From contig JBMNEQ010000003.1 of NCBI GenBank assembly GCA_050948865.1, positions 70,831 through 134,830 of the forward strand: DNA of 64,000 nucleotides, given 5' to 3'. This stretch comes from Bacilli bacterium. GTDB lineage: Bacteria > Bacillota_I > Bacilli_A > RF39 > UBA660. Of the stretch, positions 1,416 through 50,298 are shown piece after piece. The first letter of the stretch is position 1; every line of letters starts with the position of its first letter. A program made the translations under genes and the position numbers. A model generated the notes under the pieces. It was not told where the DNA came from. It searched no databases and worked only from the letters and a program-made list of their open reading frames with translations.

Positions 1416-3245
1416 ATGGGAAATGGATATTTAACAGGTTCTGCTTTAGCAATCGCGATCTTAATTACAGTTGTTTTATTTTCTAAAAAAAGTATTAAGA
1501 ATGTGGAAACTAAAATATTTAAAGGAATGTTAATTTGTAATATTTTAGAGGCTTTAACAACAACCATGATTGTTTTAGTTGCTTTAACTAGTAGATCACT
1601 TCCTTTATTTAAAATGTTAAATAGAATTGATATTATAATGATTATTACTTGGTCTAGTTTAATGTTTTATTATATTTATAATGTTTTAAGTAAAGAACCA
1701 AAAGAAAGTGTCAAAGTTTTTATTTATTTAGTAAATGCTATTTTTATGTTTTTTATATTCATTTTAGATGTTCATATTATTGCTGAAAAAGGGATATTAG
1801 ATTCTTATGGACCATTAACAACCTTCGGTTTATTGGGGGCTTCTTTTTATATAGTTTTAATGATAGGAACTTTATTATTTTTAAGAAATAGAAAAAAAGA
1901 AGTTGATCAAAAGAAATTTATTCCTTTTTATTTTTTAATCTTTTTATTAATAATAGCTGCTGGATTAAGAGTGATTATTCCAGAAATAAATTTTATTTCT
2001 ATTATTTTAAGTTTTGTTAATTTAATAATGATGTTTACGATTGAAAATCCTGATTTAAAATTAGTTAAAGAATTAAATGAAGCTAAAGAACAAGCTGAAA
2101 GGGCGAATAAAGCAAAAAGTGATTTTTTATCTAGTATGTCTCATGAAATAAGAACTCCTTTAAATGTTATTATCGGTTTAAGTGAAGATATTGCTTCATA
2201 TCAAAATGAAATTCCTAAAGAAGTGGAAGAAAACGTTCAGGATATATTAAATGCTTCTAATACTTTATTAGAGATAATAGGTAATATTTTAGATATTAGT
2301 CAAATAGAAAGTAATAAAATAAGATTAGTGGAAAAACCTTATGTTTTAAAAGAAGAAATAAAAAATTTAATAAATATTTTAAAACCACGAATAGGAGATA
2401 AAAAGATTGAATTAAAATTAAGTTTAGCTCCTGACCTTCCTTATGAATTAAAAGGAGATAAATTACAAGTTAAAAAAATAATTAATAACTTATTAACTAA
2501 TGCTATTAAATATACAGAAGAAGGTTTAATCCAATTAACTATAAATTGTATTAATGAAAATAATCATTGTCTTTTAATTATTAGTGTGCAAGATACAGGA
2601 AAAGGTATTAAAGCTAAAAATATTTATAAATTATTTACTAAGTTTGAACGCTTAGATATTGAAATGAATTCTACTGCTGAAGGAACAGGACTTGGTTTAG
2701 CAATTACGAAGTCGTTAGTTGATATTATGGGAGGCACAATTAATGTTCAAAGTCAATTTGGAAAAGGATCATTATTTGTTGTTCAAATTCCTCAAAGAAT
2801 TTCTAAAATGGTTGAACCTTATAATAAAGAAGTAATAAATACTAATAATTTAGAAGAAATAAAATATCAAGGGAAAAGGATTTTAGTTGTTGATGATAAT
2901 AAATTAAATCTTAAAGTAGTGAAAAAAGTTTTAACTAAATTTAATTTGGAAGTTGAAGAATGTGAAACTGGAGAAGAATGTTTAAAGAAAATAAATTCTA
3001 ACCAACATTATGATCTTATTTTTATGGATATTATGATGCCTGTTATGAATGGAGAAGAAGTTTTAAGAAAATTAAAAGAAATTCCTCATTTTAAGACACC
3101 TGTTATTGCTTTAACAGCTGATGCTGTTGTGGGAGCTAGAGAAAAATATTTGGCTGAGGGTTTCATTGATTATCTTCCTAAACCTTTTAATCAAGAACAA
3201 ATAAAAGAGAAATTAGATTTAATATTTAACGAAAAGGATTATTGA
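1416..3245 (+). CDS. hybrid sensor histidine kinase/response regulator (multi-TM sensor, HisKA, HATPase_c, REC)
   Basis: H box [10 protein letters not shown] box [11 protein letters not shown]1 DTGKGI, G2 GTGLGLAI. C-terminal receiver has VVDDN...FMDIMMP...ALTADA...KP. Confidence 0.85.
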
Positions 3246-3298
3246 CATATGTTCATAACCAAGATATAATTAAATATATTATAAGGAGAAGATGATAG

Positions 3299-3568
3299 AT
3301 GAAAATATTAAAATTTGGGGCTGTTTGGTGTCCTGGATGTTTAGTTATGAAACCTCGTTTTCTAGAAATAGAAAAAGAATATCCTTGGTTACATACTGAA
3401 TTTTATGATTGTGATGAAGATCAAGAAATGTTTAAACAATGGAAAGTTAATGATGTTTTACCAGTCTTTATTTTTCTTGATCAAAATAATCAAGAAATTT
3501 TAAGATTAATTGGGGAACAATCTAAAAAGAAAATAATTGATCTTATTTTAAAAAATAAAGACAAGTAA
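3299..3568 (+). CDS. thioredoxin-family protein
   Basis: WCPGC active-site motif in an 89-aa thioredoxin-sized ORF. RBS AAGGAG lies upstream. Confidence 0.75.
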   Translation: MKILKFGAVWCPGCLVMKPRFLEIEKEYPWLHTEFYDCDEDQEMFKQWKVNDVLPVFIFLDQNNQEILRLIGEQSKKKIIDLILKNKDK

Positions 3569-3587
3569 TAGAAGATTAGGTGAAATA

Positions 3588-4712
3588 ATGAAAAATATAT
3601 TAAAAATCTTATTAATAATAAGTGTTTTTTTTGCGATTGGTTTTTTAAAAATTGATGCTGCTTCTAAAGTTGATATTCATCTTTTTTACGGGGATTATTG
3701 TCCTCACTGTGCTAAAGAAATAATAATGTTAAAAGATTTAGCTAAAAAAGATCAAAGAATTAATCTTCTTCTTTATGAAATGAGTAATCCAAAGAATCAT
3801 CAATTAGCAGTAGAAATGGCTAAAAACTTAAATACTACTATTACAGGAGTTCCTTTTACAGTAATAGGAGATAAATACTTTACAGGATATGGAGAAGGTT
3901 ATAATAAAGAGGCTATTATAAAAGCTATTACTGAAGAACTAGGTGAAGAGATAGAAGAAAAACATAATTATAAATTTAAAGTTCCTTTATTAGGAGAAGT
4001 GGAAACAAAAGATTTATCTTTGCCTGCTATTGCTATTTTAATGGGAATTTTAGATGGATTTAATCCTTGTGCAATGTGGGTTTTATTATTTTTAATATCG
4101 ATGTTAATTGGAATGAAAAATAAAAAAGAAATGTGGCTTTTAGGCTCAACTTTTATTATTTCTTCCGCTTTAGTTTATGCTTTATTTATGGTTGCTTGGC
4201 TTAATTTAGCTTTATTTATGGGTTCATTAACTCCGATTAGAATTTTAATTGCTTTAGTAGCCTTAACAGGTGGAGTTATTAATTTTAAGTCTTATTTTGA
4301 TAAAAGTGATGGTTGCACTATTATTGATGAAAAAAAGCGAAAGAAAATATTTAAAAGAATAAAAAAGTTTACTAATGAAAATAAACTTCTTTTAGCTTTA
4401 GGAGGAGTAATTCTTTTAGCTTTTTCTGTTAATTTAATTGAATTATTATGTTCTTTAGGTTTACCTGTTATCTTTACTCAAATTTTAGCGATAAATAAAG
4501 TTTCTACTTTTTTATATGTTATTTATATTTTTATTTATATCTTTTTCTTTATGCTTGATGATATTATTGTCTTTTTTATCGCGATGTCTACTTTAGAATT
4601 AACTGGAGTTTCTACTAAATATGGAAAAATGTCTAATATTATTGGTGGTATTTTAATGATTATTATTGGTTTATTATTGATTTTCAATCCTAGTTTATTA
4701 ATGTTTAATTGA
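3588..4712 (+). CDS. secreted thioredoxin-fold domain fused to a DsbD/CcdA-like thiol-disulfide transfer membrane domain
   Basis: N-terminal signal/TM, a CPHC motif, then multiple TM helices with a membrane-embedded Cys (GFNPCAMW) as in CcdA/DsbD. Confidence 0.6.
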   Translation: MKNILKILLIISVFFAIGFLKIDAASKVDIHLFYGDYCPHCAKEIIMLKDLAKKDQRINLLLYEMSNPKNHQLAVEMAKNLNTTITGVPFTVIGDKYFTGYGEGYNKEAIIKAITEELGEEIEEKHNYKFKVPLLGEVETKDLSLPAIAILMGILDGFNPCAMWVLLFLISMLIGMKNKKEMWLLGSTFIISSALVYALFMVAWLNLALFMGSLTPIRILIALVALTGGVINFKSYFDKSDGCTIIDEKKRKKIFKRIKKFTNENKLLLALGGVILLAFSVNLIELLCSLGLPVIFTQILAINKVSTFLYVIYIFIYIFFFMLDDIIVFFIAMSTLELTGVSTKYGKMSNIIGGILMIIIGLLLIFNPSLLMFN

Positions 4713-4726
4713 GGAGAAATATAATT

Positions 4727-5452
4727 ATGAAAAAAATTATTGCAGTTGGTAGTGGTAAAGGAGGAGTTGGTAAATCTTTAATCTCTTCTTTACTAGGGAT
4801 AAAATTACAAAAAGAAGGTTATAAAGTTGGTATTTTGGATGCTGATTTAACAGGTCCTTCGATATCTAATATTTTTAAAATAACAGAAAAACCGAAAATA
4901 GAAGGAGAAACAATTTATCCTTTTATTACTAAATTAGGTTTAAAAATAATTTCTCTTAATATGCTTTTAGAACATGATGATGATCCAACTATTTGGAGGG
5001 GACCATTATTATCTAATGTTTTATTAGAACTTTATAATAACACTAATTGGGGGGAATTAGATTATTTAATAATTGATATGCCTCCTGGAACTAGTGATAT
5101 TGCTATTACTGTTTATCAATCTTTTTCTTTAGAAGGGGTTATTGTTGTTACTACACCAGAACACTTAGTAAAAGTGATTATTAAAAAGTTTTATAATATG
5201 ACTAAAAAGATGAAGATTAAAATATTAGGAATTATTGAAAATATGAGTTATTTAAAATGTGAGCATTGTTTAACTAAAATTAATTTGTTTGGAGATAGTC
5301 AAATAGATCAGTTGGCTTTAGAATTAGGGATTAAAGTTCTTGGAAAGATACCACTTGATAGTAAAATTAATGATTGGATTAATAATAAAAGTTTAGAAGA
5401 ATATCCTTTAGAAGATATTTTAAAACTGATAAAATTTAAAGGAGGAAAATAA
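4727..5452 (+). CDS. Mrp/NBP35 (ApbC) family Fe-S cluster carrier ATPase
   Basis: Deviant Walker A GSGKGGVGKS and a CEHC (CXXC) motif. ATG 4727 follows GAGGAG (4711-4716); the TTG at 4709 from the ORF track lies inside the RBS. Confidence 0.8.
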   Translation: MKKIIAVGSGKGGVGKSLISSLLGIKLQKEGYKVGILDADLTGPSISNIFKITEKPKIEGETIYPFITKLGLKIISLNMLLEHDDDPTIWRGPLLSNVLLELYNNTNWGELDYLIIDMPPGTSDIAITVYQSFSLEGVIVVTTPEHLVKVIIKKFYNMTKKMKIKILGIIENMSYLKCEHCLTKINLFGDSQIDQLALELGIKVLGKIPLDSKINDWINNKSLEEYPLEDILKLIKFKGGK

Positions 5453-5453
5453 A

Positions 5454-5786
5454 ATGAAGATAATTATAACCGCGAGTGGTCAAGAAAAGAATAGTTTATT
5501 AGATCTTCGGTTTGGAAGATGTGCCTTTTTTTATATTTATGATACAGAAAAAAAAGAAGCAAAAATAGTTAAGAATGAAGCTTCTTGTGTCGGGGGAGGA
5601 GCGGGAATAAAGGCTTCTAATTTTGTTGTTCAAGAAGCTGATGTTTTAATTACTGGTAATTTAGGACCAAATGCTCAATATGTTTTAAAGGAAGCGGGAA
5701 TAAAAGTTTATATTTCTAAAATAAAAGAAATAGAAGCAGTTTTAAAAGATTATCAGGAAGATAAATTAGAATTATTTGATTATTAA
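5454..5786 (+). CDS. NifB/NifX-type (dinitrogenase FeMo-cofactor-binding-like) domain protein
   Basis: 110-aa ORF with FGRCAFFYIYD and ITGNLGPNA blocks typical of the NifX/NifB small-domain family. Translationally close to mrp. Confidence 0.65.
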   Translation: MKIIITASGQEKNSLLDLRFGRCAFFYIYDTEKKEAKIVKNEASCVGGGAGIKASNFVVQEADVLITGNLGPNAQYVLKEAGIKVYISKIKEIEAVLKDYQEDKLELFDY

Positions 5787-5800
5787 AGAAATGAGGCGTA

Positions 5801-6619
5801 ATTATTAATATTGTTATTCTAAGTGGTAAAGGGGGAACGGGTAAAACTTTAGTGGGAACTAATTTAGCTTCATTATTGAATATAAATTATATTGATGCTG
5901 ATGTTGAAGAACCTAATGGTTTTATATTTTTAAAACCATTAATTAAGACTAAAGAAAAAGTAAAAATTGATGTTCCTATTATTAATCAAGATCAATGTAA
6001 TTTATGTTTAAAATGTTTAGAATTTTGTCAATTTAATGTTTTTGCTAAAACTAAAAATAAAATCTTAATTTTTGAAGAACTTTGTCATAGTTGTGGTGGT
6101 TGTAAGATGGTTTGTCCAACTAAAGCTTTAGATTACCGGAAGAAAACTATTGGTTTCATCGAAAAAGGGGTAAAAGATAATTTTAAATGTTATCAAGGAA
6201 TTTTAAAAGTTGGAGAAGTTATAGCTGTTCCTTTAATTAAAGAATTATTAAAAGATTTACCAAAGGAATTAAATATTATTGATGCTTCTCCTGGAACCTC
6301 TTGTAATGCAGGAACTACTTTAGAATTCGCGGATAAAGTTATTTTAGTAACAGAACCAACTAAACTTGCTTTGCATGATTTAAAACGAATTGTTCAAATA
6401 GTAAAAGAAAGAAAGATCCCTCTAGGAATTATTATTAATAAAGTTTTAGAAGAAGATAATTTAATTAAAGATTATTGTAAGAAGAATAATCTTCTTATTT
6501 TAGGTAGTATAAAATATAAAGAAGAGATTGCTTATTTATATTCAGAAGGAAAACTTTTAGAAAAAGAAGAATTTAAGGAAATTATTTTAAATATGAAGGA
6601 GTATTTACTATGCAAATAG
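5801..6619 (+). CDS. MinD/ParA-type P-loop ATPase with an inserted 2x[4Fe-4S] ferredoxin domain; 5' end non-canonical
   Basis: The P-loop SGKGGTGKT is encoded at 5822-5848, upstream of the first canonical start (GTG 5852). CNLCLKCLEFC and CHSCGGCKMVCP are the cluster motifs. Only ATT codons (5801/5804) are available after GAGG 5793-5796. Confidence 0.7.
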   Translation: MINIVILSGKGGTGKTLVGTNLASLLNINYIDADVEEPNGFIFLKPLIKTKEKVKIDVPIINQDQCNLCLKCLEFCQFNVFAKTKNKILIFEELCHSCGGCKMVCPTKALDYRKKTIGFIEKGVKDNFKCYQGILKVGEVIAVPLIKELLKDLPKELNIIDASPGTSCNAGTTLEFADKVILVTEPTKLALHDLKRIVQIVKERKIPLGIIINKVLEEDNLIKDYCKKNNLLILGSIKYKEEIAYLYSEGKLLEKEEFKEIILNMKEYLLCK

Positions 6620-7449
6620 CTATTATAAGTGGTAAAGGAGGAACTGGAAAAACAACTATTGCTGTAGGCCTTGGTGAAGTAATTAAGAATAGTATAAAAA
6701 TAGATTGTGATGTTGATGCTTCAAATATGAATTTATTTTATCAAGGTAAAGTAATTCGTCAAGAAAAGTTTTATTCAGGAAAAACAGCAGTTATTAATCA
6801 AGATCTTTGTCTTAAATGTAATAGATGTTTAGAACATTGTAAATTTGATGCTATTAATAATTATGTAATAAATGATCTTAAATGTGAAGGTTGTTTGGTT
6901 TGTAAGTTAGTTTGTCCTTCTTTGGCCATAACTTTTAAAGATAATTATATTGCTGATATTTATTTAAAAAGGTTAAAGAATGGTCGTTTAATTAAAGCGA
7001 AAATGAAAATAGGAGCTGCTGGTTCAGGGAAACTAATAACAGCATTAAGAAGCAAAATAATGGATTCTCAAGTAATAACTATCATTGATGCTTCACCAGG
7101 CCTTGGTTGCCCTGTAATCGCTTCTCTTACCAATGTTGATTTAGCTTTAATAGTTACAGAACCAACTTTATCAGCTTTTAAAGATTTAAAGCGTTTAGTT
7201 TTACTAACTAAAAAATTAAAAGTGAAAACTGTAGTTTCTATTAATAAATATAATCTTAATTTAAAAATAACTAAAAAAATAAAAGACTATTGTCAAAAGA
7301 ATAATCTAGAACTTTTAAGTTTAATTCCCTATGATCAATTAGTCTTAAAATCTATTCAAGAACTAAAACCAATTGTCACCTATCAAGATAGTTTAGCTGG
7401 TTTAGAAATTAAAAAACTTGCTCAAAAATTAATATTATTAAAAGAATAA
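6610..7449 (+). CDS. MinD/ParA-type P-loop ATPase with an inserted 2x[4Fe-4S] ferredoxin domain (paralog)
   Basis: N-terminus MQIAIISGKGGTGKTT. CLKCNRCLEHC and CEGCLVCKLVCP motifs. Overlaps the previous stop codon. Confidence 0.8.
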   Translation: MQIAIISGKGGTGKTTIAVGLGEVIKNSIKIDCDVDASNMNLFYQGKVIRQEKFYSGKTAVINQDLCLKCNRCLEHCKFDAINNYVINDLKCEGCLVCKLVCPSLAITFKDNYIADIYLKRLKNGRLIKAKMKIGAAGSGKLITALRSKIMDSQVITIIDASPGLGCPVIASLTNVDLALIVTEPTLSAFKDLKRLVLLTKKLKVKTVVSINKYNLNLKITKKIKDYCQKNNLELLSLIPYDQLVLKSIQELKPIVTYQDSLAGLEIKKLAQKLILLKE

Positions 7450-7470
7450 ATTTTTAAAGGAGTAATATTT

Positions 7471-7824
7471 ATGTCAAGACCAATTAAAATAAGAGCTGTT
7501 TGTCAAAAACCAGAGAAAAATATCTTTGGACCAAAGAATCAAGATGATCAAATTTGTATTTATATGAATTTAGAAGAATATGAAACAATTAGATTAATTG
7601 ATTATGAAGGATTAAATCAAGAAGAATGTGCATCTTTTATGAAAGTAGCTAGAACAACAGTTCAAAGAATGTATAATGAAGCTAGAAGAAAAATAAGTGA
7701 TGCTCTTATTAATGGAAAAACTTTAAAAATAAAAGGAGGAAATTATATTTTATGTGATAAAGATCAACGTAGTCATGAATGTCATAAAATTAATTGTCCT
7801 CGTTTTATCTCTAAAATAAGATAG
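7471..7824 (+). CDS. DUF134 (UPF0251) family putative DNA-binding protein
   Basis: MSRPIKIR...FGP...LEEYETIRLIDYEGLNQEE...VARTTVQRMYNEARRKI matches the DUF134 pattern with a sigma-70 region-4-like HTH. Cys/His-rich tail. Confidence 0.7.
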   Translation: MSRPIKIRAVCQKPEKNIFGPKNQDDQICIYMNLEEYETIRLIDYEGLNQEECASFMKVARTTVQRMYNEARRKISDALINGKTLKIKGGNYILCDKDQRSHECHKINCPRFISKIR

Positions 7825-7869
7825 ATTTTAAATTATTTTTATGCTACTATTACACTAAAGGAGTGATCG

Positions 7870-9000
7870 TTGATGAAAAAAGAAGTTTTAATAATATTGG
7901 TTGTTTTTCTTTTAATTGGAGGTGCTATTCTTTATAATTATTCATCTAGTAAAAAGAAAAAACAATCCCAAGAGGAAACCTCTACTTTATATATTTATAA
8001 AGAAGAACTAAAAACTAAAGGAGCAACAGGATTAGATTATAGATATTATGTAACTAAAGAAGATACTTCTAAAGATGTTTTAGTTAAAAAATATGTTTGT
8101 CAAAATAAAGATTGTCAAGATCTGGCACTTACATCTTCTAATATTTTAATTTATGATGGTAAAAGTTATCTTTATAATTTTAATAAAGATACTAAAATAG
8201 AAATTAACTTAGATGTAACAAAATATAAAAGTTTTAAAATAGAAGAGATAAATGGTCTTGCTCACGGACTTTTAGTTTATAAAGATTCTAAAAATGGCAC
8301 TTATTATTCTTTAAAAGAACAAAAATTAATCTCCAAATTTATTTATAATGACCTTTGGGTTCATGATGAAGATATGTTAAAAGCCGGATACATTTTTGCG
8401 AATAAAGAAACAAAAGAACGAAATTATCGTCAATTTCTTTTAGAAATTAAAACAGGAAAAGTTATGTTAAATAAAGATGACTTCTTTGGTGTTTTAAGTA
8501 AGAATGGTCAACTTTATTATTTATTTGAAAAAGATAACTTAGATCAAGTTAAAATTTATAATTCTAAATTAAAATTATTATTTAATGGTAAAAAATATTC
8601 TCTTTCTAAATTAATGATTACTGATAATGGGAATTTATTAGTTGTGGGAGATGATGAAAAGGTAATAGAGGAGTATGATCCAGCTGGTAAATTAATTACT
8701 TCAAGTGATACTTATCAAGAAATATTCTTGATAAGTGATAATATAATTTGTTTAGTTGATCAAGATGGTTATTTAAAAGCAATTGATAATAAAGGAAAAG
8801 AAATAACAACTTTTATAAAATTTACTTCTAATTTAAAGTTTTATCCTTTAACTTCTTTTATTGCTAAAGGAAAGATTCAATTAATTATTGAAGATACTAA
8901 AATTAAAAAAGGTGATAATGGTTATTGCCGTTCTTATAGTTATGAATTAGAGACGAAGAAATCTAATGTTGAAGAAGTTGATCTTTGTTTTGAAAATTAA
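7870..9000 (+). CDS. hypothetical N-terminally membrane-anchored protein
   Basis: Long ORF with one N-terminal hydrophobic helix and RBS AAGGAG. I recognise no family. Confidence 0.5.
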   Translation: MMKKEVLIILVVFLLIGGAILYNYSSSKKKKQSQEETSTLYIYKEELKTKGATGLDYRYYVTKEDTSKDVLVKKYVCQNKDCQDLALTSSNILIYDGKSYLYNFNKDTKIEINLDVTKYKSFKIEEINGLAHGLLVYKDSKNGTYYSLKEQKLISKFIYNDLWVHDEDMLKAGYIFANKETKERNYRQFLLEIKTGKVMLNKDDFFGVLSKNGQLYYLFEKDNLDQVKIYNSKLKLLFNGKKYSLSKLMITDNGNLLVVGDDEKVIEEYDPAGKLITSSDTYQEIFLISDNIICLVDQDGYLKAIDNKGKEITTFIKFTSNLKFYPLTSFIAKGKIQLIIEDTKIKKGDNGYCRSYSYELETKKSNVEEVDLCFEN

Positions 9001-9051
9001 TAAAATGCCCAATTGACACTTTTTGGTATCAATGTTAGAATAATGACTTAA

Positions 9052-9789
9052 ATGGGAGGAATGGTTGTGAAAAAGGAAACAAAGAAACAATTAAAGGTTT
9101 ATCTTTGTGGAGTTCTTAGTGGAGCCTTAATGTTAGTTACTTCTAATTATTATGCGGGTCAAATAATAAAGAAACAAAATACTAATTTTAAAAATGAATT
9201 TTCTTTACCACATTTTGAAGAAAGTTTTCAAGATACTAAAGAAGTCCAACAATATGCTTTTGATTATTATGGAGAAGAAATAAAGATTCAAGGAGAAAAA
9301 GTTAAGATTCATTCTTTTGATGAATTTGGGAACTATCAAGTAAAAGAGGGAGAAACAGTTACAGTCCCCATTAAAGATAATGATTATTTATTAGATGAAT
9401 ATATTTCAGAAAAAGAAGCAGATGTTTTTAAAATATTAAAAAATAAAGATAAAATAGTTAATCAATATGCTATTTATGAAACTTTTAATCGTTTAGAAAA
9501 AGTTTATGAAGAGTATTTAACGAGAAAACCTTTTACTAATTTAGATAATAGAAAAGAAGCACTTTATAAAGTTTATTATGATTATATTGTAGCTGAAGAA
9601 GGTTATACTATGGGTGGATATAAATTTTTAGAATTAGATAAAACTATCCAAAAAGATATTTTAAAAATTTATCAAAACGTTAATCAAATGAGAAAAACAG
9701 GAGAAATTAAAGAAACTTCTAAACTCAAAACGTTTATTAAACAAAAAGAAAAGGTTATTAAATATGGATTATTAAAAATAGGAAGGTAA
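9052..9789 (+). CDS. hypothetical N-terminally membrane-anchored protein
   Basis: ORF with an N-terminal hydrophobic segment, followed by a hairpin terminator. I recognise no family. Confidence 0.45.
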   Translation: MGGMVVKKETKKQLKVYLCGVLSGALMLVTSNYYAGQIIKKQNTNFKNEFSLPHFEESFQDTKEVQQYAFDYYGEEIKIQGEKVKIHSFDEFGNYQVKEGETVTVPIKDNDYLLDEYISEKEADVFKILKNKDKIVNQYAIYETFNRLEKVYEEYLTRKPFTNLDNRKEALYKVYYDYIVAEEGYTMGGYKFLELDKTIQKDILKIYQNVNQMRKTGEIKETSKLKTFIKQKEKVIKYGLLKIGR

Positions 9790-9840: not shown

Positions 9841-11655
9841 GTGCTTAATTTGAGTATTAATTTATATTTTCCTTTATCAGGTTTATTTTTTATTCTTTTT
9901 ATGTTAGGACTTTACTTCTCTAAAAAACGTTTAATAACTATAGAGAATAAACTTTATAGAAAACTTTTAGTGATTAGTTTAATAACTTTATTATTAAATA
10001 TTTTAGTAATAGCTTTTAATAATAATTCCTTTTTTATGATTATTTTCTTTAAATTAAACTTAATTTCTATCTTAGTTTGGTTTATGCTTTTAACTTTCCT
10101 TTTACAAGTTTTAACTTTAAAGAAAAAAGAAAGAACTAATGATTATTTTTCTAACTTATTTAAAAGAAGTTTATTTTGGATAATATCTTTTGGTTTAATA
10201 AGTAGTTTAATCTTATTAGTTTTACCAATTAAAAAAACTAACTATTTAGAAGGATATAGCCTTTATTTTCTTTATTTAATAATAACCTTTTTAATGATTA
10301 CTTGGTTTATTCGTTATTTAAAAAGAAATAAACGAATCAAAAGAAAACAAAATAGTATTTTATTAATAGTCTTTTTCTTAGTTTTTCTTATTACTTTAGG
10401 TCAAATATTTTATCCAGAATTTTTCTCTTTACTATTAATAATTTATTTAATACCAGTTGTTATTTATTTTTGGTTAGATAATTTTGATTTAGAACTATTA
10501 AACAAACTTAAAGAAGAAAAAGAACGGGCTAATTTAGCCGAAACAACAAAAATAGATCTTTTATTAAAAGCAACTCATGAAATAAGAACCCCTTTAAATA
10601 CAATCTTAGGCTTTAGTCAATCCATGATTGATGAAACCTCCTTAGAAAGTATTAAAGAAGATGCCAAGCAGATAAAAGAAGCCTCTAAAAAGCTTCTTCA
10701 TGTTATTGATAATATTTTAGATGTTTATAAACCAGAACATGAAGAAATTAGTTTTGTTTATAGTGAATATAATATTAATAATTTATTCAAACAAATAACT
10801 TCTTTAATAGAATCTAAATTAAAGAAAGAAGTAGAATTTAAGTTAGAAATAAGAAAAGAAATACCATCTGTTTTATATGGAGATAGTATTGTCATTAAAA
10901 AGATCTTACTTAATCTTTTAGAACATTCAGTTAAATATACTAAAGAAGGTTATATCAAGTTAAAAATAGATAATTTAACAATAGGTAATATTTGCCGTTT
11001 AAAAATAAGAATAGAAGATAGTGGAAGAGGAATCTCAGTTGATGAATTAGAAAAGATCTTTTTAGAAAAAAGAATTGATGAAAAAAGATTAAAAGAAGGA
11101 GAAGTAGACCTTAATTTAGCAACAACCAAAAGATTAATTGAATTAATGAATGGACAGTTTATAGTAGAAAGTGAATATAATGATGGAACAGTTTATAAAA
11201 TATCACTTGATCAAAAAACTTTAAAACCAGAAGAAAAAGAAGAACAACCTCTTACAGAAATAAATTATAAAGAATTTATTGGTAAAAAAATATTAGTGGT
11301 TGATGATGATCCTTTAAACTATAAAGTAGTTTCTAAATTATTAAAAGATTATCAATTAATAATAGACAGTGTTTCTAGTGGTAGAAAATGTTTAGAAAAG
11401 ATTAATAATCAAGAAGAATATGATTTAATTCTTTTAGATGACAGAATGCCTAATATGAGTGGAGTAGAAACTTTAAAAGAATTAGAAAAAGATAAAAAGT
11501 TTAATATCCCCGTTATTGCCTTAACGGCGAATGTTTCTTATGGTATTAAAGAAAAGTATTTACAAGAAGGATTTGATGATTATATCCCTAAACCAATTGA
11601 AAAGAAAGTCTTAGAAAAGGTTATTAAAAAATATTTAAGTATGGAAATTAGATAA
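9841..11655 (+). CDS. hybrid sensor histidine kinase/response regulator paralog with degenerate ATP-binding motifs
   Basis: H box THEIRTPLN and a REC domain (VVDDD...LLDDRMP...ALTAN...KP). The N box reads LLEHSVKYT and the G2 position reads EVDLNLA instead of GxGLGL. Confidence 0.8.
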   Translation: MLNLSINLYFPLSGLFFILFMLGLYFSKKRLITIENKLYRKLLVISLITLLLNILVIAFNNNSFFMIIFFKLNLISILVWFMLLTFLLQVLTLKKKERTNDYFSNLFKRSLFWIISFGLISSLILLVLPIKKTNYLEGYSLYFLYLIITFLMITWFIRYLKRNKRIKRKQNSILLIVFFLVFLITLGQIFYPEFFSLLLIIYLIPVVIYFWLDNFDLELLNKLKEEKERANLAETTKIDLLLKATHEIRTPLNTILGFSQSMIDETSLESIKEDAKQIKEASKKLLHVIDNILDVYKPEHEEISFVYSEYNINNLFKQITSLIESKLKKEVEFKLEIRKEIPSVLYGDSIVIKKILLNLLEHSVKYTKEGYIKLKIDNLTIGNICRLKIRIEDSGRGISVDELEKIFLEKRIDEKRLKEGEVDLNLATTKRLIELMNGQFIVESEYNDGTVYKISLDQKTLKPEEKEEQPLTEINYKEFIGKKILVVDDDPLNYKVVSKLLKDYQLIIDSVSSGRKCLEKINNQEEYDLILLDDRMPNMSGVETLKELEKDKKFNIPVIALTANVSYGIKEKYLQEGFDDYIPKPIEKKVLEKVIKKYLSMEIR

Positions 11656-11731: not shown

Positions 11732-11760
11732 TTGTCAATAAACTTAGTTTTTGGTATAAT
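11732..11760 (+). promoter_or_regulatory. sigma-A-like promoter of the DGR target gene
   Basis: TTGTCA (11732-11737), a 17-nt spacer ending in TGG, then TATAAT (11755-11760). Lies 27 nt upstream of the GTG start. Confidence 0.45.
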
Positions 11761-11787: not shown

Positions 11788-13287
11788 GTGAAAAGAAAAC
11801 AAGGTTTTACTCTAATAGAACTATTAACAGTCATTATAGTCTTAATAATTATAGTTTCTATAGCAGTACCAAATATTATGAAAGTAGTAAATAACTCTAA
11901 AGAAAGATCATACCAGTTATTAATAGAATCAATTGAAAGTAGTGCTCAGTTATATGTATCTAAAGATCGAAAAACAGTAACTAATTACTTAAAGGAGCAT
12001 GAAGGAGATTCTTTTAAGATAACATTAAAGGATTTAGTAGGAGATGGTCTATTAAAAGATAAAATAATAAATCCCAGAAATAATGAAGTAATTTCTCTTA
12101 CGAAAAGTGTTTTAGTAATGTATTCAGATAAAGGCTCTTTATTGTATTGTTATGAGGATAAGGAGTGTCCTCTACCATGTGAGGCACCACTTCCTTCGCC
12201 TTTTCCGCCTAAATTAGATTCTGGAATGATTCCAATAAGATGGGATAAAGATAATAATAAATGGGTAAAAGCAGATATAACTGAGGAATGGTATGATTAT
12301 AATAAGAAGGAATGGGCTAATGCGGTGTTGGTAAATAGCGGTTCAAGGGCAACTTATCAATCAGCAGCTCCCGGAAAAGTTATATCAGAAAGTGATGTTT
12401 TAGTTTATTTAGTTTGGATTCCAAGATATAGATATAAGTTATTTAATGTAGAGTTTGCAGCAAAATCTCCACAAACAATTGAAATAGAGTTTGAAACAAG
12501 TACCGCTAATAAAGCAACTGGTAAAGCAAATAATACATGGTTAACGCATCCAGCTTTTACCTTTGGAACTGAAGAATTAACCGGCTTTTGGATAGGTAAA
12601 TTTGAAACAACAGGAAGTGAATCAAGTCCTTCAGTAAAACCAGGAATATCATCTGTTAGAGATAAGACGGTAAGTGAGTTGTATAATATGAACAAATTAT
12701 TTAATAATTTAACAACATATGGATTAACAAGTAGTAGTGATGCTCATATGTTAAAGAATATGGAATGGGGAGCAGTAGCGTATTTAAGTCATAGTAAATA
12801 TGGAAAAAATGCAGAAATAACAATTAATACAAGCTCTTCTTACTGTACAGGAGGGTCATGTAATATAACCGCTTATTTTAGTAATACAGGTCAAAGTACA
12901 ACTGGTAATGTTTATGGAGTATATGACATGAGTGGGGGAGCAAATGAATATGTAATGGGGGCGATGTATAAAAGTGGAGATAAAAATATAAATGTTTCTG
13001 ATTCAGGTTTTATTCAAGCAACAATTGATGGAGATACAATGGCAAAATATATAGATAAGTATAATTATGGAACTTCAGTTTCCGATTATAGTCGTTCAAA
13101 ATTAGGGGATGCTACAGGAGAAACTAGAGGATGGTATAGCGATTTTGCGGGCTTCGTTTACTCGAGTGATTCTTGGTTTGAACGTGGCGGCATCTACAAT
13201 ATTGGCAGCGATGCAGGAGCTTTCTACTTCTACAGAAGCTTTGGCAATGGTTACAGCTACTACGGTAGCCGCCTCGGGGTCGCGTGA
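11788..13287 (+). CDS. type IV pilin-like (prepilin N-terminal cleavage/methylation signal) protein with a C-terminal DGR variable region; DGR target protein
   Basis: N-terminus KRKQG/FTLIELLTVIIVLIIIV, a class III signal with Gly-1, Phe+1 and Glu+5. The last ~47 codons coincide with the VR. C-terminal ...RGGIYNIGSDAGAFYFYRSFGNGYSYYGSRLGVA resembles CLec/FGE-type DGR variable domains. Confidence 0.9.
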   Translation: MKRKQGFTLIELLTVIIVLIIIVSIAVPNIMKVVNNSKERSYQLLIESIESSAQLYVSKDRKTVTNYLKEHEGDSFKITLKDLVGDGLLKDKIINPRNNEVISLTKSVLVMYSDKGSLLYCYEDKECPLPCEAPLPSPFPPKLDSGMIPIRWDKDNNKWVKADITEEWYDYNKKEWANAVLVNSGSRATYQSAAPGKVISESDVLVYLVWIPRYRYKLFNVEFAAKSPQTIEIEFETSTANKATGKANNTWLTHPAFTFGTEELTGFWIGKFETTGSESSPSVKPGISSVRDKTVSELYNMNKLFNNLTTYGLTSSSDAHMLKNMEWGAVAYLSHSKYGKNAEITINTSSSYCTGGSCNITAYFSNTGQSTTGNVYGVYDMSGGANEYVMGAMYKSGDKNINVSDSGFIQATIDGDTMAKYIDKYNYGTSVSDYSRSKLGDATGETRGWYSDFAGFVYSSDSWFERGGIYNIGSDAGAFYFYRSFGNGYSYYGSRLGVA

Positions 13288-13305
13288 GCGGTCCGTTTTC
13301 CGCAG
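13146..13305 (+). repeat. DGR variable repeat (VR), including the invariant 3' IMH-like end
   Basis: 160 nt align without gaps to 14084-14243. There are 16 mismatches, 15 of them at template adenines. The last 44 nt are identical in both copies. Confidence 0.9.
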
Positions 13306-13395: not shown

Positions 13396-13426
13396 AACGA
13401 AATGGCCACTTTTCAGCCATTTCGTT
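13396..13426 (+). other. stem-loop (11-bp stem)
   Basis: AACGAAATGGC-cacttttca-GCCATTTCGTT. No U-tract follows, so it is not a canonical terminator. Confidence 0.45.
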
Positions 13427-13622: not shown

Positions 13623-13982
13623 ATTATTAATTTAGTTATATTGAATGGAAGATTAGTAAGGGATCCGGAATTAAAGTTTACTGATTCTCAGATTCCATAT
13701 GTAAAAGTTTGCCTTGCCATTGATAGGATTTATAGTGATGATAAAGGAAAAAAATTAACTGACTTTATCGATGTTACTTTTTTTAGGAAACAAGCGGAAT
13801 TAATTCATAAATATTTGGATAAAGGAAGTCAAGTTTTAATACAAGGTAAATTAAAAACAAATTCATATAAAAATAAAGATGGGGAGAAAAGATATTCTTT
13901 GGATGTAATAGGGGATACTGTTCAGTTTTTAGAGACTAGGGCTCAAGCTGAAGCTAGGCGAAAGGAGGCTAAAGAAGAATAA
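13623..13982 (+). CDS. ssb: single-stranded DNA-binding protein (OB fold), lacking the acidic C-terminal tip; probable ATT start
   Basis: (I)INLVILNGRLVRDPEL...FIDVTFFRKQAE...GSQVLIQGKL is the canonical SSB N-terminal OB pattern. GGAGG lies at 13614-13618. No canonical start precedes the conserved beta-1 strand. The protein ends ...RRKEAKEE rather than DDDIPF. Confidence 0.75.
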   Translation: MINLVILNGRLVRDPELKFTDSQIPYVKVCLAIDRIYSDDKGKKLTDFIDVTFFRKQAELIHKYLDKGSQVLIQGKLKTNSYKNKDGEKRYSLDVIGDTVQFLETRAQAEARRKEAKEE

Positions 13983-14083: not shown

Positions 14084-14243
14084 TGCGAACTTCGTTAACT
14101 CGAGTTATTCTTGGTTTAAACGTGGCGGCAACTACAATAATGGCAGCAATGCAGGAGCTTTCAACTTCAACAGAAACAATGGCAATGGTAACAGCAACAA
14201 CGGTAGCCGCCTCGGGGTCGCGTGAGCGGTCCGTTTTCCGCAG
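14084..14243 (+). repeat. DGR template repeat (TR)
   Basis: Intergenic copy of the VR, rich in AAC/AAT codons when read in the VR frame (...NYNNGSNAGAFNFNRNNGNGNSNNGS...). The 5' boundary is approximate. Confidence 0.9.
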
Positions 14244-14461: not shown

Positions 14462-14635
14462 ATGAATAAGTTATTTGATTTGAAATTAACAAATTTAAAT
14501 TTAGAAGTTTTAAAATGTGGTTTTTCTTTAAACAATTTAGAAAAATATATGGAGAAATTTAAAGAAAAAAATTTAAAAGTAGCGATCATAGAAAATAAAA
14601 AGATATTTTTTTATATTCTCGTTATAATGATATGA
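14462..14635 (+). CDS. 57-aa ORF with MutS domain-I-like segment (possible MutS-like DGR accessory protein)
   Basis: Below the ORF-track length cutoff. Its TGA overlaps the avd ATG (ATGA coupling). CGFSLNNLEKYMEKFKEKNLKVAIIEN aligns without gaps to MutS [27 protein letters not shown] at 10 of 27 positions. Confidence 0.4.
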   Translation: MNKLFDLKLTNLNLEVLKCGFSLNNLEKYMEKFKEKNLKVAIIENKKIFFYILVIMI

Positions 14636-14949
14636 TTTATTATGCTTATGATCTTTTATTAAAATATCCTAAAAGTGAAAGGTTTGCCCTTGTCGTTGAT
14701 ATAAAAAATATTATATATGAGGGTATGAGGGATGTAATTAAGATTCAGAAGGAACTTGATTATGGTGTAAAAATTAAATATTTACATGAATTGGATGTTA
14801 ATTTAAAATTATTAAAAGTTTTTGTTCGTTTATCTTTTAAAAGAAAATATATTAGTGAAAAAAACTATGAGGTGTGGAGTAGGCATATTACTCATATTAG
14901 CAATTTAATGGGAGGATTAATTAAGCATGCCAAAAACAATAAAGAATAG
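14632..14949 (+). CDS. avd: DGR accessory variability determinant (Avd-like four-helix-bundle protein)
   Basis: 105-aa helical protein with YPKSERFALV near the N-terminus and ISEKNYEVWSRHITHISNLMGGLIKH near the C-terminus. Overlaps the RT start by 23 nt. Confidence 0.75.
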   Translation: MIYYAYDLLLKYPKSERFALVVDIKNIIYEGMRDVIKIQKELDYGVKIKYLHELDVNLKLLKVFVRLSFKRKYISEKNYEVWSRHITHISNLMGGLIKHAKNNKE

Positions 14950-16039
14950 TTTTAATAATAAACTTACTTTTATGAATTTATATAAAGCTTATTTGCGTGC
15001 TAGAATGAATAAACCTAGTAGGGCAGAAATCTTTCTTTATGAAATTGACTTAGAAACGAATTTAACAAATTTATTAAATAATTTAAAAAAGGGAACATAT
15101 AAATTAGGTAAATATAGATCTTTTACTATTTATGAACCTAAAAAAAGGTTAATTAAATCTTTACCATTTGTTGATAGAATTGTTCATCAATGGATTGTAG
15201 AGGAGTTTATTAAACCTTTTTTTGTTCCTCGTTTTATTAATACTAACTGTGCTTGTATAGAGGGAAGGGGAACTCATTTTGCGGTGTTTAAGGTTCAAGA
15301 ATATATGCGAAAAATGAAAGTTATTTCGAATGATTATTATATTTTGAAATGTGATATTAAAAAATACTTTTACAGTATTGATAAAGGAATTTTATTTAAT
15401 ATTATTGCTAAGAAAATAAAAGATAAAAAACTATTAAAATTAATTGAAGTTTTAATTTATGATGATGATAATGATGTTGGAATTCCCATAGGAAATTATA
15501 CATCTCAATATTTTGCTAATATATATTTAGGGGAACTTGATAATTATATTAAATATAAATTAAGGATTAAATATATAGTTAGATATATGGATGATTTTGT
15601 TATTTTAGTTAAAAACAAAGAAGAAGCTAAAAGATATTATGGGTTGATTCAACAGTTTTTAAGAGATAATTTAAAATTAGAATTAAATCCTAAAAGTAAT
15701 TATTATCCATCGAAAATGGGGGTTAATTTTTGTGGTTATCGTATTTTTGAAACACATAGATTATTAAGAGAGAAAAGTAAGAAAAAAGTAAAGAAAAAAA
15801 TAAAAGGATGGAATAAAGAATTTTTAAAAAACAAAATGTTATTTAATAAAATAGTTTTATCATGGAATTCTTGGCTTGCTCATTCTTCGCATGCGAATAG
15901 TTATAAATTACAAAAAAAGTTATATAATAGAATTATCTTTAAAGGATTTTTAAAAAATCCTAATTCTTTAAATAAAGATAATATTAAAAACTTTAATATT
16001 GGTGAATTTATTGTTTATGATGATTATAATAATCATTAA
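14927..16039 (+). CDS. DGR-type reverse transcriptase
   Basis: YEPKKRLI...DRIVHQ (motifs 1-2), IPIGNYTSQYFANIYL (the DGR-typical SQ motif), and RYMDDFVIL (the YxDD catalytic motif). No RNase H, maturase or endonuclease domain. Confidence 0.9.
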   Translation: MPKTIKNSFNNKLTFMNLYKAYLRARMNKPSRAEIFLYEIDLETNLTNLLNNLKKGTYKLGKYRSFTIYEPKKRLIKSLPFVDRIVHQWIVEEFIKPFFVPRFINTNCACIEGRGTHFAVFKVQEYMRKMKVISNDYYILKCDIKKYFYSIDKGILFNIIAKKIKDKKLLKLIEVLIYDDDNDVGIPIGNYTSQYFANIYLGELDNYIKYKLRIKYIVRYMDDFVILVKNKEEAKRYYGLIQQFLRDNLKLELNPKSNYYPSKMGVNFCGYRIFETHRLLREKSKKKVKKKIKGWNKEFLKNKMLFNKIVLSWNSWLAHSSHANSYKLQKKLYNRIIFKGFLKNPNSLNKDNIKNFNIGEFIVYDDYNNH

Positions 16040-16600: not shown

Positions 16601-16707
16601 AGTGATTAACTTATGATAATGTCTTAAGTGTTATCTTTTGATTATGTCTCAAAAGTAATTTATAATATATCACTGAGGTGATATGAATGAGAAAGGAACA
16701 ATTAAGA

Positions 16708-18084
16708 ATGAATGAACAAAAGAAATATGAAATTATTAAAAAGTTAGTAGAACAAGGAGGAAGCAAAAATCGGGTTGCATTATAACTATCTTTATCTAGA
16801 AGACAAATTGATCGTCTTTTAATTATTTATAAAAAAAGAGGTAAATCTGGTTTTATACATGGCAATCGAAATAAGAAACCCAGTATAGCACACGATAAAT
16901 CTCTTTCTGATGATATTGTACTACTTTATACTATTAAATATCAAGGTTTTAATTTTAATCATTTTAAAGAATATCTTGAAGAAGTTGAAAACATAAAGGT
17001 CTCTTATAATTTTATTTATAATACTTTAAATAAGGCAGGTATTTTATCGCCTAGGGCTCGTAAAAGAACTAGAAAGGAATATAGAAAACAACAATTGTTA
17101 AAAGAAAAATTACTGACTGGTAAAACTGAAGAAGAAGTAGAAGTTATTGTTAATAATGAGATAGCAATTGAGGATTCTCACCCAAGGCAAGAAAAACCAA
17201 AATACTTCGGAGAAATTATTGAACAAGACGGTTCAATACACCAATGGTTTGGGGATTTTAAAACATGTCTTCATCTAGCTGTAGATAAAGCAACAAACAC
17301 AGTTGTCGGCGGTTATTTTGACTATCAGGAAACTTTAAAGGGTTATTATCAAACCAAATATCAAATCCTAAAAGGTTATGGCATTCCTTATAGTTTTAAA
17401 ACAGATAATAGAACTGTATTCAATTATAACAAATTAAACCCTGATAAAAAAACATCTGAAAATGATATCCTTACCCAGTATGGTTATTCATGTAAACAAC
17501 TAGGTATTGATTTAAAAACAAGTAGTGTTCCTGAAGCAAAACCAATTATTGAACGTACTAACGGTACATTTCAAGGAAGACTAATTAATGAGTTAAAATT
17601 AAACGGAATACACACACTTGAAAAAGCTAATGAATATTTAATAAATGTTTTTATTCCTAAATATAATAAACGCTTTGCTATGGATTATAAGAAGTTTCCA
17701 AGTGCATTTGAAAAATCACCTAGTGAAGAAAAAATAAATTATACTTTAGCAGTTTTATCAACAAGAATAATAGATAGAGGTAATTCCATTAAATATAAAA
17801 ACAAGTATTATTTACCTTATTTTAATAATGAGTTAAAATGCTTCAGGCCTAAAACTAAAGCATTAGTTATTGAAGCATTTAATGGTGATTTAGTGGTGAG
17901 TATAGACGAAAAAATTTATGAGTTAAGAGAACTGTCCAGAAATAAAAGGTTTTCAAAAGAACTTGATCTACCTCAGGAAGAAATAAAAAAGGAAAAATAT
18001 GTGCCCCCTATGAGTCATCCTTGGAAAAGAGCTTCTTTTGAGAAACAAATGAAAAAATCTCATAAAGAAAAGGTTTATGCATAA
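16708..18084 (+). pseudogene. ISNCY-type DDE transposase with a premature in-frame TAA at codon 26
   Basis: MNEQKKYEIIKKLVEQGGSKNRVAL*LSLSRRQIDRLL...; the stop is at 16783-16785. The frame then runs open to 18084. The ORF-track start at 17095 is an internal TTG. Confidence 0.7.
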
Positions 18085-18106
18085 ACGAGTTTTATGCCGA
18101 GATAAT

Positions 18107-18208
18107 CCATCAATTTAGGAGATAATATCCGTAATGTTTCAGGCAATCAAATTAAAAATTTGATTGCCATCTAACTAAAGGATATTATCTAGATTCCTGA
18201 ATTGATGG
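18107..18208 (+). other. long imperfect hairpin inside the IS right end
   Basis: Central 12-bp stem GGCAATCAAATT/AATTTGATTGCC (18142-18169), an 11-bp stem AGATAATATCC/GGATATTATCT (18120-18130 with 18180-18190), and an outer stem CCATCAATTTAGG/CCTGAATTGATGG. Confidence 0.5.
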
Positions 18209-18277
18209 AGGAATTGGAATAAATTTTCCAAACTATTTTTTTTATCTAATGTGAGACATTTTCAAAAGTTATTGACA

Positions 18278-18477: not shown

Positions 18478-18834
18478 ATGAAGGATATTACTATATTAAA
18501 AGATAATGGTGTTGATGTTGATCGGGGAATAGAATTATTTGGGGATCTAGATACTTATAATGAAATGTTGGAAGATTTTATTCAAGAAGTAGAAAAAAAG
18601 ATGGGGAGGATTAATTCTTTTAAAGAAGAGAAGGATTTAGAAAATTATTCAATTTTGGTTCATTCTTTAAAGGGTGATGCAAAGTATTTTGGTTTTACTA
18701 AATTAGGGGAACTTGCTTATCAGCACGAATTAGAAAGTAAAAGTGGTAATCTTGATTTTGTTCAAGAGAATTATTTAAAATTAGAGGAAGAATTTAAGAG
18801 AATAATGGATATATTAAAAAGATATTTGGAATAG
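18478..18834 (+). CDS. stand-alone Hpt (histidine phosphotransfer) domain protein
   Basis: 118-aa helical protein with the HSLKGDAKYFG phosphorylatable-His motif. Confidence 0.75.
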   Translation: MKDITILKDNGVDVDRGIELFGDLDTYNEMLEDFIQEVEKKMGRINSFKEEKDLENYSILVHSLKGDAKYFGFTKLGELAYQHELESKSGNLDFVQENYLKLEEEFKRIMDILKRYLE

Positions 18835-30290: not shown

Positions 30291-30965
30291 GTGATAAAGA
30301 GAAAGAAAATAATTATTATTAGCAGTTTTATTTTGCTAGGGGGATTATTCTTTTATTTTTCTTCATTGAAGAAAGAAGAAGAAGAAGAAGAAAAAGAACC
30401 AGAACTTTTAATTGTTCAAAAAGAGGAAAAAGAAGAAATCAAAGAAAATTATGTTGTTGATATAAAAGGAGCTATTATTAAGCCCCAGGTTTATGAAATA
30501 GAAGTTGGGAAAAGGGTTATTGATGTGATTAATAAAGCTGGAGGCTTAACGAAAGAGGCAGATACTAGTGTTATAAATTTAAGTAAAAAGGTTATTGATG
30601 AGATGGTTATTATAATTTATACTAAAAAAGAAATAGAAGATTTTAAAAAGAAATTAAAGGAACCAACCTTAATAGAAGTAATAAAATATATTGAAAAAAA
30701 TGATTGTCCTGATCCTTTAATTAATGATGCTTGTCTTAATAACTCTTCTGATGATGTTTTAAAAGAAAATAAGGGTTTAGTTTCTCTTAATGAAGCTTCA
30801 TTAGGGGAATTATTGACTTTAACTGGTATTGGTGAAGTTAAAGCTTTAGCAATTATTGATTACCGTGAAGAAAATGGTCCTTTTAAAAGCATTGAAGAAT
30901 TAATGGAGGTTAAAGGGATAGGGGAAAGCATTTTTGCTAAAATTAAGGATTATATTACTATCTAA
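30291..30965 (+). CDS. comEA: competence protein ComEA (DNA receptor)
   Basis: N-terminal anchor, an SLBB-like segment (VDIKGAI.KPQVYE), and a C-terminal HhH pair (LNEASLGELLTLTGIGEVKALAIIDYRE..G.F.SIEEL..VKGIG). Confidence 0.8.
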   Translation: MIKRKKIIIISSFILLGGLFFYFSSLKKEEEEEEKEPELLIVQKEEKEEIKENYVVDIKGAIIKPQVYEIEVGKRVIDVINKAGGLTKEADTSVINLSKKVIDEMVIIIYTKKEIEDFKKKLKEPTLIEVIKYIEKNDCPDPLINDACLNNSSDDVLKENKGLVSLNEASLGELLTLTGIGEVKALAIIDYREENGPFKSIEELMEVKGIGESIFAKIKDYITI

Positions 30966-45416: not shown

Positions 45417-45417
45417 A

Positions 45418-46323: not shown

Positions 46324-46344
46324 ATAATTAAAGAAAGGTTAAAC

Positions 46345-47046: not shown

Positions 47047-47107
47047 TTTATTTGTTTTAAGAAGGCATTTATAGTATAATGATTTTAAATTAAAGGGAGC
47101 ATTGTCT

Positions 47108-48355: not shown

Positions 48356-48368
48356 AGGAGGAATTTAA

Positions 48369-49433: not shown

Positions 49434-49452
49434 TAAATATTTAGGTTTATAC

Positions 49453-49485
49453 AAAAAAAGACACAAAATCAAGTCTTTTTTTTTT
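49453..49485 (+). terminator. rho-independent terminator after ftsZ
   Basis: AAAAAAGAC-acaaaatcaa-GTCTTTTTT with a long T tract. Confidence 0.65.
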
Positions 49486-49505
49486 ATACTTTTATTGGTG
49501 ATTTA

Positions 49506-50297: not shown

Positions 50298-50298
50298 A

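Follow-up and report, generated by a model that had tools for sequence, protein, structure and literature searches.

Type IV pilins that carry an additional module have been characterized in Streptococcus sanguinis, in which PilB bears a vWA module and has been proposed to reside at the pilus tip, and PilC bears a lectin module; the same study's catalogue of modular pilins includes eight proteins that combine IPR012902 with IPR005532, that is, a pilin with an FGE-type domain (Raynaud et al. 2021, PMC8179133). Programmed variation of pilus components has been described in other bacteria: in Bacteroides, diversity-generating retroelements (DGRs) are reported to vary the adhesins of type V pili (preprint of Macadangdang et al. 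2024, PMC11601372), and for Neisseria, junctions have been described as promoting events between pilE and pilS that are based on microhomology. Here we report a locus in which a DGR is attached to a gene for a protein of the type IV pilin kind. It lies in a 64,000-nucleotide stretch of DNA (hereafter the window; positions 70,831 to 134,830 of contig JBMNEQ010000003.1, assembly GCA_050948865.1) from a Bacilli bacterium, and its product, a 499-residue protein referred to below as the target, is best described as a modular type IV pilin with a C-type lectin (CLec) effector module that is varied by the adjacent DGR.

The retroelement contains all the parts expected of such a system. The variable repeat (VR) at the 3’ end of the target gene and the template repeat (TR) downstream of it are 160 nt long each and differ at 16 positions, 15 of which are adenines in the TR and one a thymine, and the TR is followed by genes for an accessory variability determinant (avd) and a reverse transcriptase (RT; Table 1). 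Read in frame, the TR contains 14 AAY codons; up to 23 codons of the target can vary, corresponding to ~10^22.7 possible peptides, and the variable residues are confined to positions 455–492 of 499. The VR has a G+C content of 54%, as opposed to 32% in the rest of the gene. Its GC-rich last 44 nt, which resemble an initiation of mutagenic homing (IMH) site, are followed by a hairpin with a perfect stem that begins exactly where the homology between VR and TR ends (-8.6 kcal/mol as DNA, z = -2.9). GC-rich inverted repeats downstream of the IMH are a described feature of DGRs (PMC5758913), and on sequence grounds the arrangement found here matches that layout.

Evidence that the element operates in nature comes from a second strain. 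The 90%-identity cluster of the target protein holds two further sequences, one of which (P0122) is encoded on a 787,845-bp JGI contig and defines locus L081. When the two loci are compared, the 4761 nt upstream of the target, the 980-nt stretch from the small SSB gene to the TR and the 1995-nt stretch that contains avd and the RT gene (7.7 kb together) are all 100% identical, whereas the 2293-nt stretch of the target gene contains 31 differences, of which 27 fall in the VR (23 of them at TR adenines) and only four elsewhere. At the protein level, 16 of the 19 differences lie within residues 455–492. An invariant TR next to a rewritten VR, in strains that are otherwise identical, is the footprint expected of mutagenic retrohoming, and we therefore consider the element to have been active in nature.

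Some of the differences between the two strains have another character. Four VR differences occupy TR positions other than adenine (13168, 13189–13190 and 13296) and include a GG to AA change in codon 468, while four substitutions cluster at 13012–13036, 110–135 nt upstream of the VR, in a part of the gene that is otherwise identical. Neither the non-adenine VR differences nor the upstream cluster is accounted for by adenine mutagenesis of the present TR.

At its other end the target carries a prepilin-type signal. The gene starts with a GTG codon placed 5 nt 3’ of the sequence TAGGGAG, and the same start is called in an independent second assembly of the species. The N terminus, MKRKQG/FTLIELLTVIIVLIIIVSIAVP, comprises a short basic leader, glycine at -1, phenylalanine at +1, glutamate at +5 and then a hydrophobic stretch, which together constitute a class III signal. 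This region scores above the curated cut-offs of both Pfam N_methyl (PF07963; 24.4 bits, cut-off 21.2) and NCBIfam TIGR02532 (18.8 bits, cut-off 16.3), while the ComGC, GspG, ComGD/E/F and PilA models give partial N-terminal matches that remain far below their full-length cut-offs. Across the six frames of the 64-kb window, a regular expression for the prepilin motif returned two matches, each of which opens a long open reading frame (ORF) after a basic leader. The signal is also well conserved: in an alignment of 62 full-length homologues, most of which share 41–54% identity with the window protein, F7 is invariant, G6, T8, L9 and E11 are each conserved in at least 90% of the sequences, and N_methyl is detected in 58.

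Structure prediction places these two ends in separate modules. The AlphaFold2 model of the full-length target, built from the 62-sequence alignment (pLDDT, the predicted local distance difference test score, 90.8; pTM, the predicted template modelling score, 0.75), begins with a continuous 51-residue helix (residues 9–59, pLDDT ~90), followed by a second helix and three short strands within residues 76–122; a proline-rich linker (residues 128–137, pLDDT <50), the sole internal segment of low confidence, then leads to a large domain of 360 residues (140–499). The model thus has the layout by which modular pilins are recognized, with two confidently modelled modules separated by a low-confidence proline-rich linker, the extra module being of the CLec/FGE type. 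A Foldseek search of the PDB with the model retrieved TaqVP (5vf4) first, with an E-value of 1.2e-7 and a probability of 1.0, and then TvpA (2y3c, E = 6.8e-3), followed by the FGE-like proteins ToxD and EgtB at non-significant values (E of 0.24 or above); the effector module additionally gives a weak sequence match to 5vf4, and the Pfam FGE-sulfatase model weakly detects the domain in just six of the 62 aligned family members. On the strength of the model, the effector module is predicted to have the CLec/FGE-like fold of DGR variable proteins. We regard it as almost certain that the gene is actively targeted by the DGR and that its product has a CLec fold.

The original prediction, made from the letters of the stretch alone, had proposed that a DGR diversifies a protein with a class III signal (KRKQG, Gly-1, Phe+1, Glu+5) and a CLec/FGE-like, ligand-binding C terminus located about 450 residues from that anchor. 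Each of these elements was borne out, the first by a complete set of TR, avd and RT and the adenine bias of the repeats, the second by the two profile models and by conservation among homologues, and the last by the position of the variable residues and by the Foldseek ranking, structure prediction having been suggested as the check.

The target belongs to a large family. A word-indexed search with the protein gave at least 7995 significant matches, and an exhaustive search of 50%-identity representatives returned 1232 clusters containing the effector module at E ≤ 1e-30. About one third of the best 150 cluster representatives align from residue 1–5 and are consequently headed by the pilin module; in the remaining matches, the module corresponding to residues 140–499 stands behind other N termini (Ig-like PF16403, CBM2) or occurs as repeats in giant proteins. 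Genomic surroundings were gathered for the best 80 of 587 stretches encoding relatives in species-representative genomes. Nearly all of these loci come from metagenome-assembled genomes (MAGs) that derive from gut, digester and sediment samples and are assigned to uncultured Bacilli, Mollicutes or Tenericutes; a single genome often encodes several family paralogues, and the closest named relative among the matches listed is labelled ‘Bacilli bacterium’. The prepilin motif is present in 57 of the 92 family ORFs of the 80 loci and the window. In relatives, comparable pilin heads are joined to a wide range of effector modules of up to 862 residues. The first 132 residues of a DUF6273 pilin in L033 are 77% identical to those of family members in L057 and L078. 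Such identity across different effectors indicates that the pilin module is swapped as a unit between effector modules. Pfam all but misses the CLec part of the family, so domain-based surveys of DGR targets and of modular pilins have probably undercounted it.

These data bear on the possibility that the N terminus is a plain signal anchor or Sec-type signal, with the GFTLIE motif arising by chance or persisting as a relic, which would make the target an ordinary DGR variable protein comparable to TvpA. About 40% of the family ORFs collected from these loci lack the motif and have other N termini (such as PF16403 Ig-like or CBM2), which speaks for this view and implies that the effector module works in other contexts. 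It is nevertheless hard to reconcile with a motif that scores above two curated thresholds and is kept in 58 of 62 homologues at 40–50% overall identity, with a similarity to solved pilins that spans ~60 residues of α1, or with the exchange of the pilin module as a unit among effectors, and we consider it improbable. The N terminus is very probably a genuine prepilin and pilin module.

Some relatives of the target are accompanied by retroelements of their own. Eight of the 80 loci encode an RT (53–58% identical to that of the window) and Avd directly downstream of a family member, and all eight contain adenine-biased VR/TR pairs. Motif scans find a prepilin head in four of these eight DGR-linked targets (L010, L019, L032 and L066), and a fifth, in L024, has an N-terminal region resembling the pilin module. 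A paralogue located on another contig of the same MAG, E17__bin332 (L014, 3389–3524), furthermore carries at its 3’ end a match to the TR of L010 (7130–7265), with 23 mismatches at adenines and one other, which suggests that this DGR probably serves at least two pilin genes and hence acts in trans.

Two of the related loci also connect the family with pilus genes. L033 contains an operon (1499–7918) that encodes, in order, a PilC platform protein (T2SSF, 6.6e-49) with an N-terminal extension of ~300 residues, a PilD prepilin peptidase (A24_N_bact and Peptidase_A24), the 573-residue DUF6273 modular pilin and, as its last gene, a family member, so that PilD lies two genes upstream of the latter. 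No assembly ATPase gene was seen on this 15-kb contig. In L053, four tandem pilins of ~145 residues, with an α1N nearly that of the family member, are encoded 5 kb upstream of it. Judged from gene order and sequence, these two loci provide indirect support for display of the target on a pilus, the PilC/PilD linkage being found in a single relative.

Several observations weigh against assembly into a filament. In the 64-kb window, motif scans, Pfam scans and the Pfam annotations already available for these genes in L081 and L082 show no T2SSE, T2SSF or Peptidase_A24 gene, and PilC/PilD genes occur within 10 kb of a family member in only one of the 80 related loci (L033); motif scans of the window and the 80 loci found that one PilD and no type IV pilus ATPase. 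A homology search with the L033 PilD listed matches of at least 61% identity throughout, none of them on the 787,845-bp contig of L081 or on a further contig of 136,234 bp, and searches for relatives of proteins from the ends of the window returned nothing or short contigs without pilus genes. The N-terminal module gives a divided answer. Modelled alone (pLDDT 89.9), it contains strands at residues 76–79, 107–112 and 118–122, and a Foldseek search with it against the PDB gave no significant match and none below E = 1. Its sequence profile, searched against the PDB, yielded 17 matches, all of them type IV pilins or the pseudopilin GspG (best E 1.2e-9), with the mature Phe1 of the solved pilins opposite F7 of the target; these alignments end at query residue 76 at most and cover the α1 helix only. 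Given the profile matches on the one hand and the null Foldseek result on the other, we treat the pilin-type α1 helix as established, while the globular head is consistent with a pilin according to the profile and the predicted secondary structure.

The most serious competitor to a pilin in a filament is a membrane-anchored surface receptor, in which the class III signal would serve only for export and anchoring, the hydrophobic helix, cleaved or uncleaved at its leader, would keep the protein in the membrane, and the CLec domain would stay close to it; archaeal sugar-binding proteins with class III signals, such as those of the Sulfolobus bindosome, show what such a protein would look like. 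The lack of assembly genes near the target, both in the window and in 79 of the 80 related loci, fits this arrangement, as do the head without structural match to pilins and the many genomes with numerous large prepilin-headed paralogues, a number above that usual for minor pilins. Conversely, Glu+5 and the whole of α1 are conserved as in pilins that assemble, a family member shares an operon with a PilC platform protein in L033, and canonical-size pilins with the same α1N accompany a family member in L053. The cell envelope provides a further argument. The window contains a sporulation-type division cluster (44328–50991: murG, murB, ftsQ, ftsA and ftsZ, then spoIIGA and a sigma factor) with an ftsW-type gene also among its peptidoglycan synthesis genes, as well as genes for SirA and a YlbD_coat protein, and these genes suggest that the organism is a sporulation-type member of the Bacillota with a G+C content of 25.4% and a cell wall. 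A tether of 12 linker residues would probably be too short to carry the effector through such a wall. On balance we think a receptor anchored in the membrane unlikely, though it deserves more weight than any other alternative. The original prediction had described the organism as a spore former whose window lacks pilus ATPase, platform and prepilin peptidase genes and contains comEA and comEC; both descriptions agree with what we found, and the two com genes hint at a Com-type system.

We thus favour a DGR-varied modular pilin displayed on a filament, and assign this full picture a probability of about 0.6. In this picture, the TR RNA of the adjacent chromosomal element (TR, Avd and RT) is copied into cDNA with errors at adenines, and the mutagenized cDNA replaces the last ~46 codons of the target gene, so that variation falls on the ligand-binding surface of the CLec domain. 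The leader may then be cut off after Gly6 by a prepilin peptidase whose gene would lie outside the window, presumably with N-methylation of the new N terminus, after which the pilin module would allow the protein to enter a type IV filament, either a pilus or a Com-type pseudopilus. The bulk of the effector module makes the tip seem the likeliest position, as does the comparison with S. sanguinis PilB. At the tip, the variable lectin domain would project beyond the cell wall and act as an adhesin able to change its specificity for a putative ligand.

Table 1 Features of the target gene, the retroelement and other parts of the window (positions in the window).
Feature	Position	Strand	Basis or remark
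Target gene of the DGR, encoding a modular type IV pilin-like protein of 499 aa	11788..13287	+	ORF, profile matches, model
Leader peptide MKRKQG, ending at Gly-1 (predicted prepilin peptidase cleavage site)	11788..11805	+	
Pilin module, residues 7–127: hydrophobic α1N with Glu+5, long helix, small β-sheet	11806..12168	+	models, profile matches
Proline-rich linker, residues 128–139 (PLPCEAPLPSPF)	12169..12204	+	low model confidence
CLec/FGE-like effector module, residues 140–499	12205..13284	+	Foldseek against the PDB
VR: codons 454–499, stop codon and 18 nt beyond	13146..13305	+	repeat comparison
IMH-like 3’ end of VR, 44 nt, 70% G+C, identical to TR	13262..13305	+	
Hairpin CGAGAGCT-TTTA-AGCTCTCG, 8-bp stem, 4-nt loop	13306..13325	+	fold energy
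TR	14084..14243	+	repeat comparison
avd (bAvd-like accessory variability determinant)	14632..14949	+	PF22296, 4.4e-19
DGR reverse transcriptase	14927..16039	+	RVT_1 1.8e-15; contains IGNYTSQ and YMDD
Short SSB paralogue between VR and TR, 113 aa, OB fold, no acidic C-terminal tail	13641..13982	+	Pfam SSB 1.4e-27
Promoter-like site TTGTCA-17-TATAAT, extended TG, upstream of target gene	11732..11760	+	11/12 consensus matches
Insertion sequence beside cassette, outside the DGR, 1677 nt	16601..18277	+	same element in L081
Second modular prepilin-type protein, 535 aa	54469..56076	-	N_methyl 30.2 bits
comEA	30291-30965		Pfam scan
comEC	30934-33075		Pfam scan
SirA	37702-38139		Pfam scan
YlbD_coat protein	43028-43384		Pfam scan

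The remaining features of the cassette can be dealt with briefly. The promoter-like site ahead of the target gene is the best-scoring one between 11500 and 16300 and represents a consensus match only, the number of such sites in this interval being no higher than in a shuffle control. Between the target and the small SSB gene lies an inverted repeat with a 13-bp stem, AACGAAATGGCTG-AAAAG-TGGCCATTTCGTT (13396–13426), which was scored as resembling a minus-strand terminator. The SSB gene itself keeps its position inside the cassette in L081 and is found there only in the species of the window; SSB does not appear in the list of DGR accessory genes of Wu et al. 2018. Its product could be an undescribed DGR accessory factor. 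We rejected the idea that SSB is a recurrent accessory gene of these elements, as the SSBs encoded near L032, L066 and L041 are full-length proteins with acidic tails and look like housekeeping copies. The other prepilin-type protein of the window starts with MKFKKG/FTLIELL, has an asparagine-rich C-terminal region and is unrelated to the target beyond residue ~45; it was considered as a second target of the DGR and discarded because no match to the TR exists there.

The insertion sequence (IS) beside the cassette follows the RT gene in the window and is located between the target and SSB genes in L081 (11876–13552), where a further IS of the DDE_Tnp_1 type (7681–9444) lies upstream of the target. 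The longest transposase ORF of the shared element has 329 residues in the window as against 465 in L081, and the window copy may be disrupted. Paralogous hybrid histidine kinases with HisKA, HATPase and receiver domains (1416–3245, 609 aa; 9841–11655, 604 aa) flank the DGR locus, with a stand-alone Hpt protein on the other side (18478–18834) and two ORFs without Pfam matches just upstream (7870–9000 and 9052–9789). Rfam detected two tRNAs in the window and nothing else.

Many DGRs are phage-borne, and the IS abutting the cassette would suit a mobile origin as well; the target would then be a tail-fibre-like, receptor-binding protein of a phage or other mobile element, and the cassette part of a prophage. 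Pfam scans of the ORFs flanking the cassette revealed no phage structural genes, and the neighbours within the window are the two hybrid histidine kinases, the Hpt protein and an ABC transporter, together with housekeeping genes such as those for SMC, RNase III, LexA and gyrase. The two strains share this context, prepilin signals are not known from phage tails, and no relative of the family was found among the 2.9 million viral contigs of IMG/VR. On the basis of this last result and of the gene context we reject a phage origin, to which we attach a very small probability.

If the DGR-varied modular pilin does reach a pilus tip, it would represent a natural scaffold for hypervariable binders beyond a Gram-positive wall. 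Most cellular DGR targets have no assigned function, and it is seldom clear how they get to the cell surface; a prepilin signal with a pilin module offers a concrete candidate route, and this also links DGRs with type IV filaments, two well-studied systems that are unconnected in the literature we searched. A broader and more tentative idea, which we hold to be possible but on present odds doubtful, is that type IV filaments serve a whole lineage of uncultured low-GC Bacilli as a platform for programmable display, and that a co-evolving DGR rewrites several pilin-headed CLec paralogues in each genome, both in cis and in trans. Were this true, pilus tips would present ever-changing lectin-like binders for attachment to shifting host, microbial or particulate ligands, and hypervariation driven by a retroelement would be recorded for the first time in a type IV pilus system.

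The original prediction had not known of an experimental description of this mode of presentation. That statement stands insofar as, among the roughly 8.3 million papers searched, none mentions a diversity-generating retroelement together with a prepilin or, apart from passing catalogue entries, relates a DGR to a type IV pilin; pilins go unmentioned in the main DGR surveys (Wu 2018 and Roux 2021). It has to be qualified in view of the eight catalogued IPR012902–IPR005532 proteins, and of a 2024 DGR survey that lists, among the uncommon proteins with a VR, a pilin domain of the GspG type; moreover, ‘putative pilin structures’ are named among DUF1566 targets in candidate phyla, as far as can be told from a secondary citation (PMC6642488). 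The combination of a DGR with a type IV pilin is real, recurrent and apparently undescribed as such; it joins known elements in a logical way and introduces no new principle.

Among cellular DGR targets, TaqVP of Thermus aquaticus (5VF4) and TvpA of Treponema denticola (2Y3C) share with the target the CLec/FGE-like fold (predicted here), a VR at the extreme C terminus, adenine-specific differences between VR and TR and a cellular DGR. To our knowledge, the known cellular DGR targets are lipoproteins or proteins with Sec signals; unlike targets of the TaqVP and TvpA type, the protein described here begins with a prepilin signal and a pilin module. The Bacteroides type V adhesins resemble it in that a DGR varies the adhesive component of a pilus (a putative one here) in an anaerobic, commensal-type bacterium. 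Type V (FimA-like) pili have a separate, lipoprotein-based assembly, and their Bacteroides host is diderm, in contrast to the type IV pilin and the walled Bacillota host of the present case. The terms type IV, prepilin, Firmicutes and Bacilli do not occur in the Bacteroides preprint (PMC11601372).

Antigenic variation of PilE in Neisseria is comparable in that a subunit of the type IV pilus (here a pilin-like protein) undergoes programmed hypervariation, but draws on silent pilS donor copies and involves no reverse transcription. It is a form of gene conversion that affects the major pilin and serves immune evasion, not a change of ligand. The modular pilins of S. sanguinis have no hypermutation system attached, unlike the target, which is linked to a DGR and encoded outside any pil operon; its effector also differs from those of the catalogued modular pilins in being a divergent CLec/FGE-like domain, and since Pfam detects this domain in only six of 62 members, domain-based catalogues mostly miss the family. 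With the S. sanguinis proteins it nonetheless has in common a class III signal, a small pilin module, a short linker, a bulky ligand-binding module and a monoderm host.

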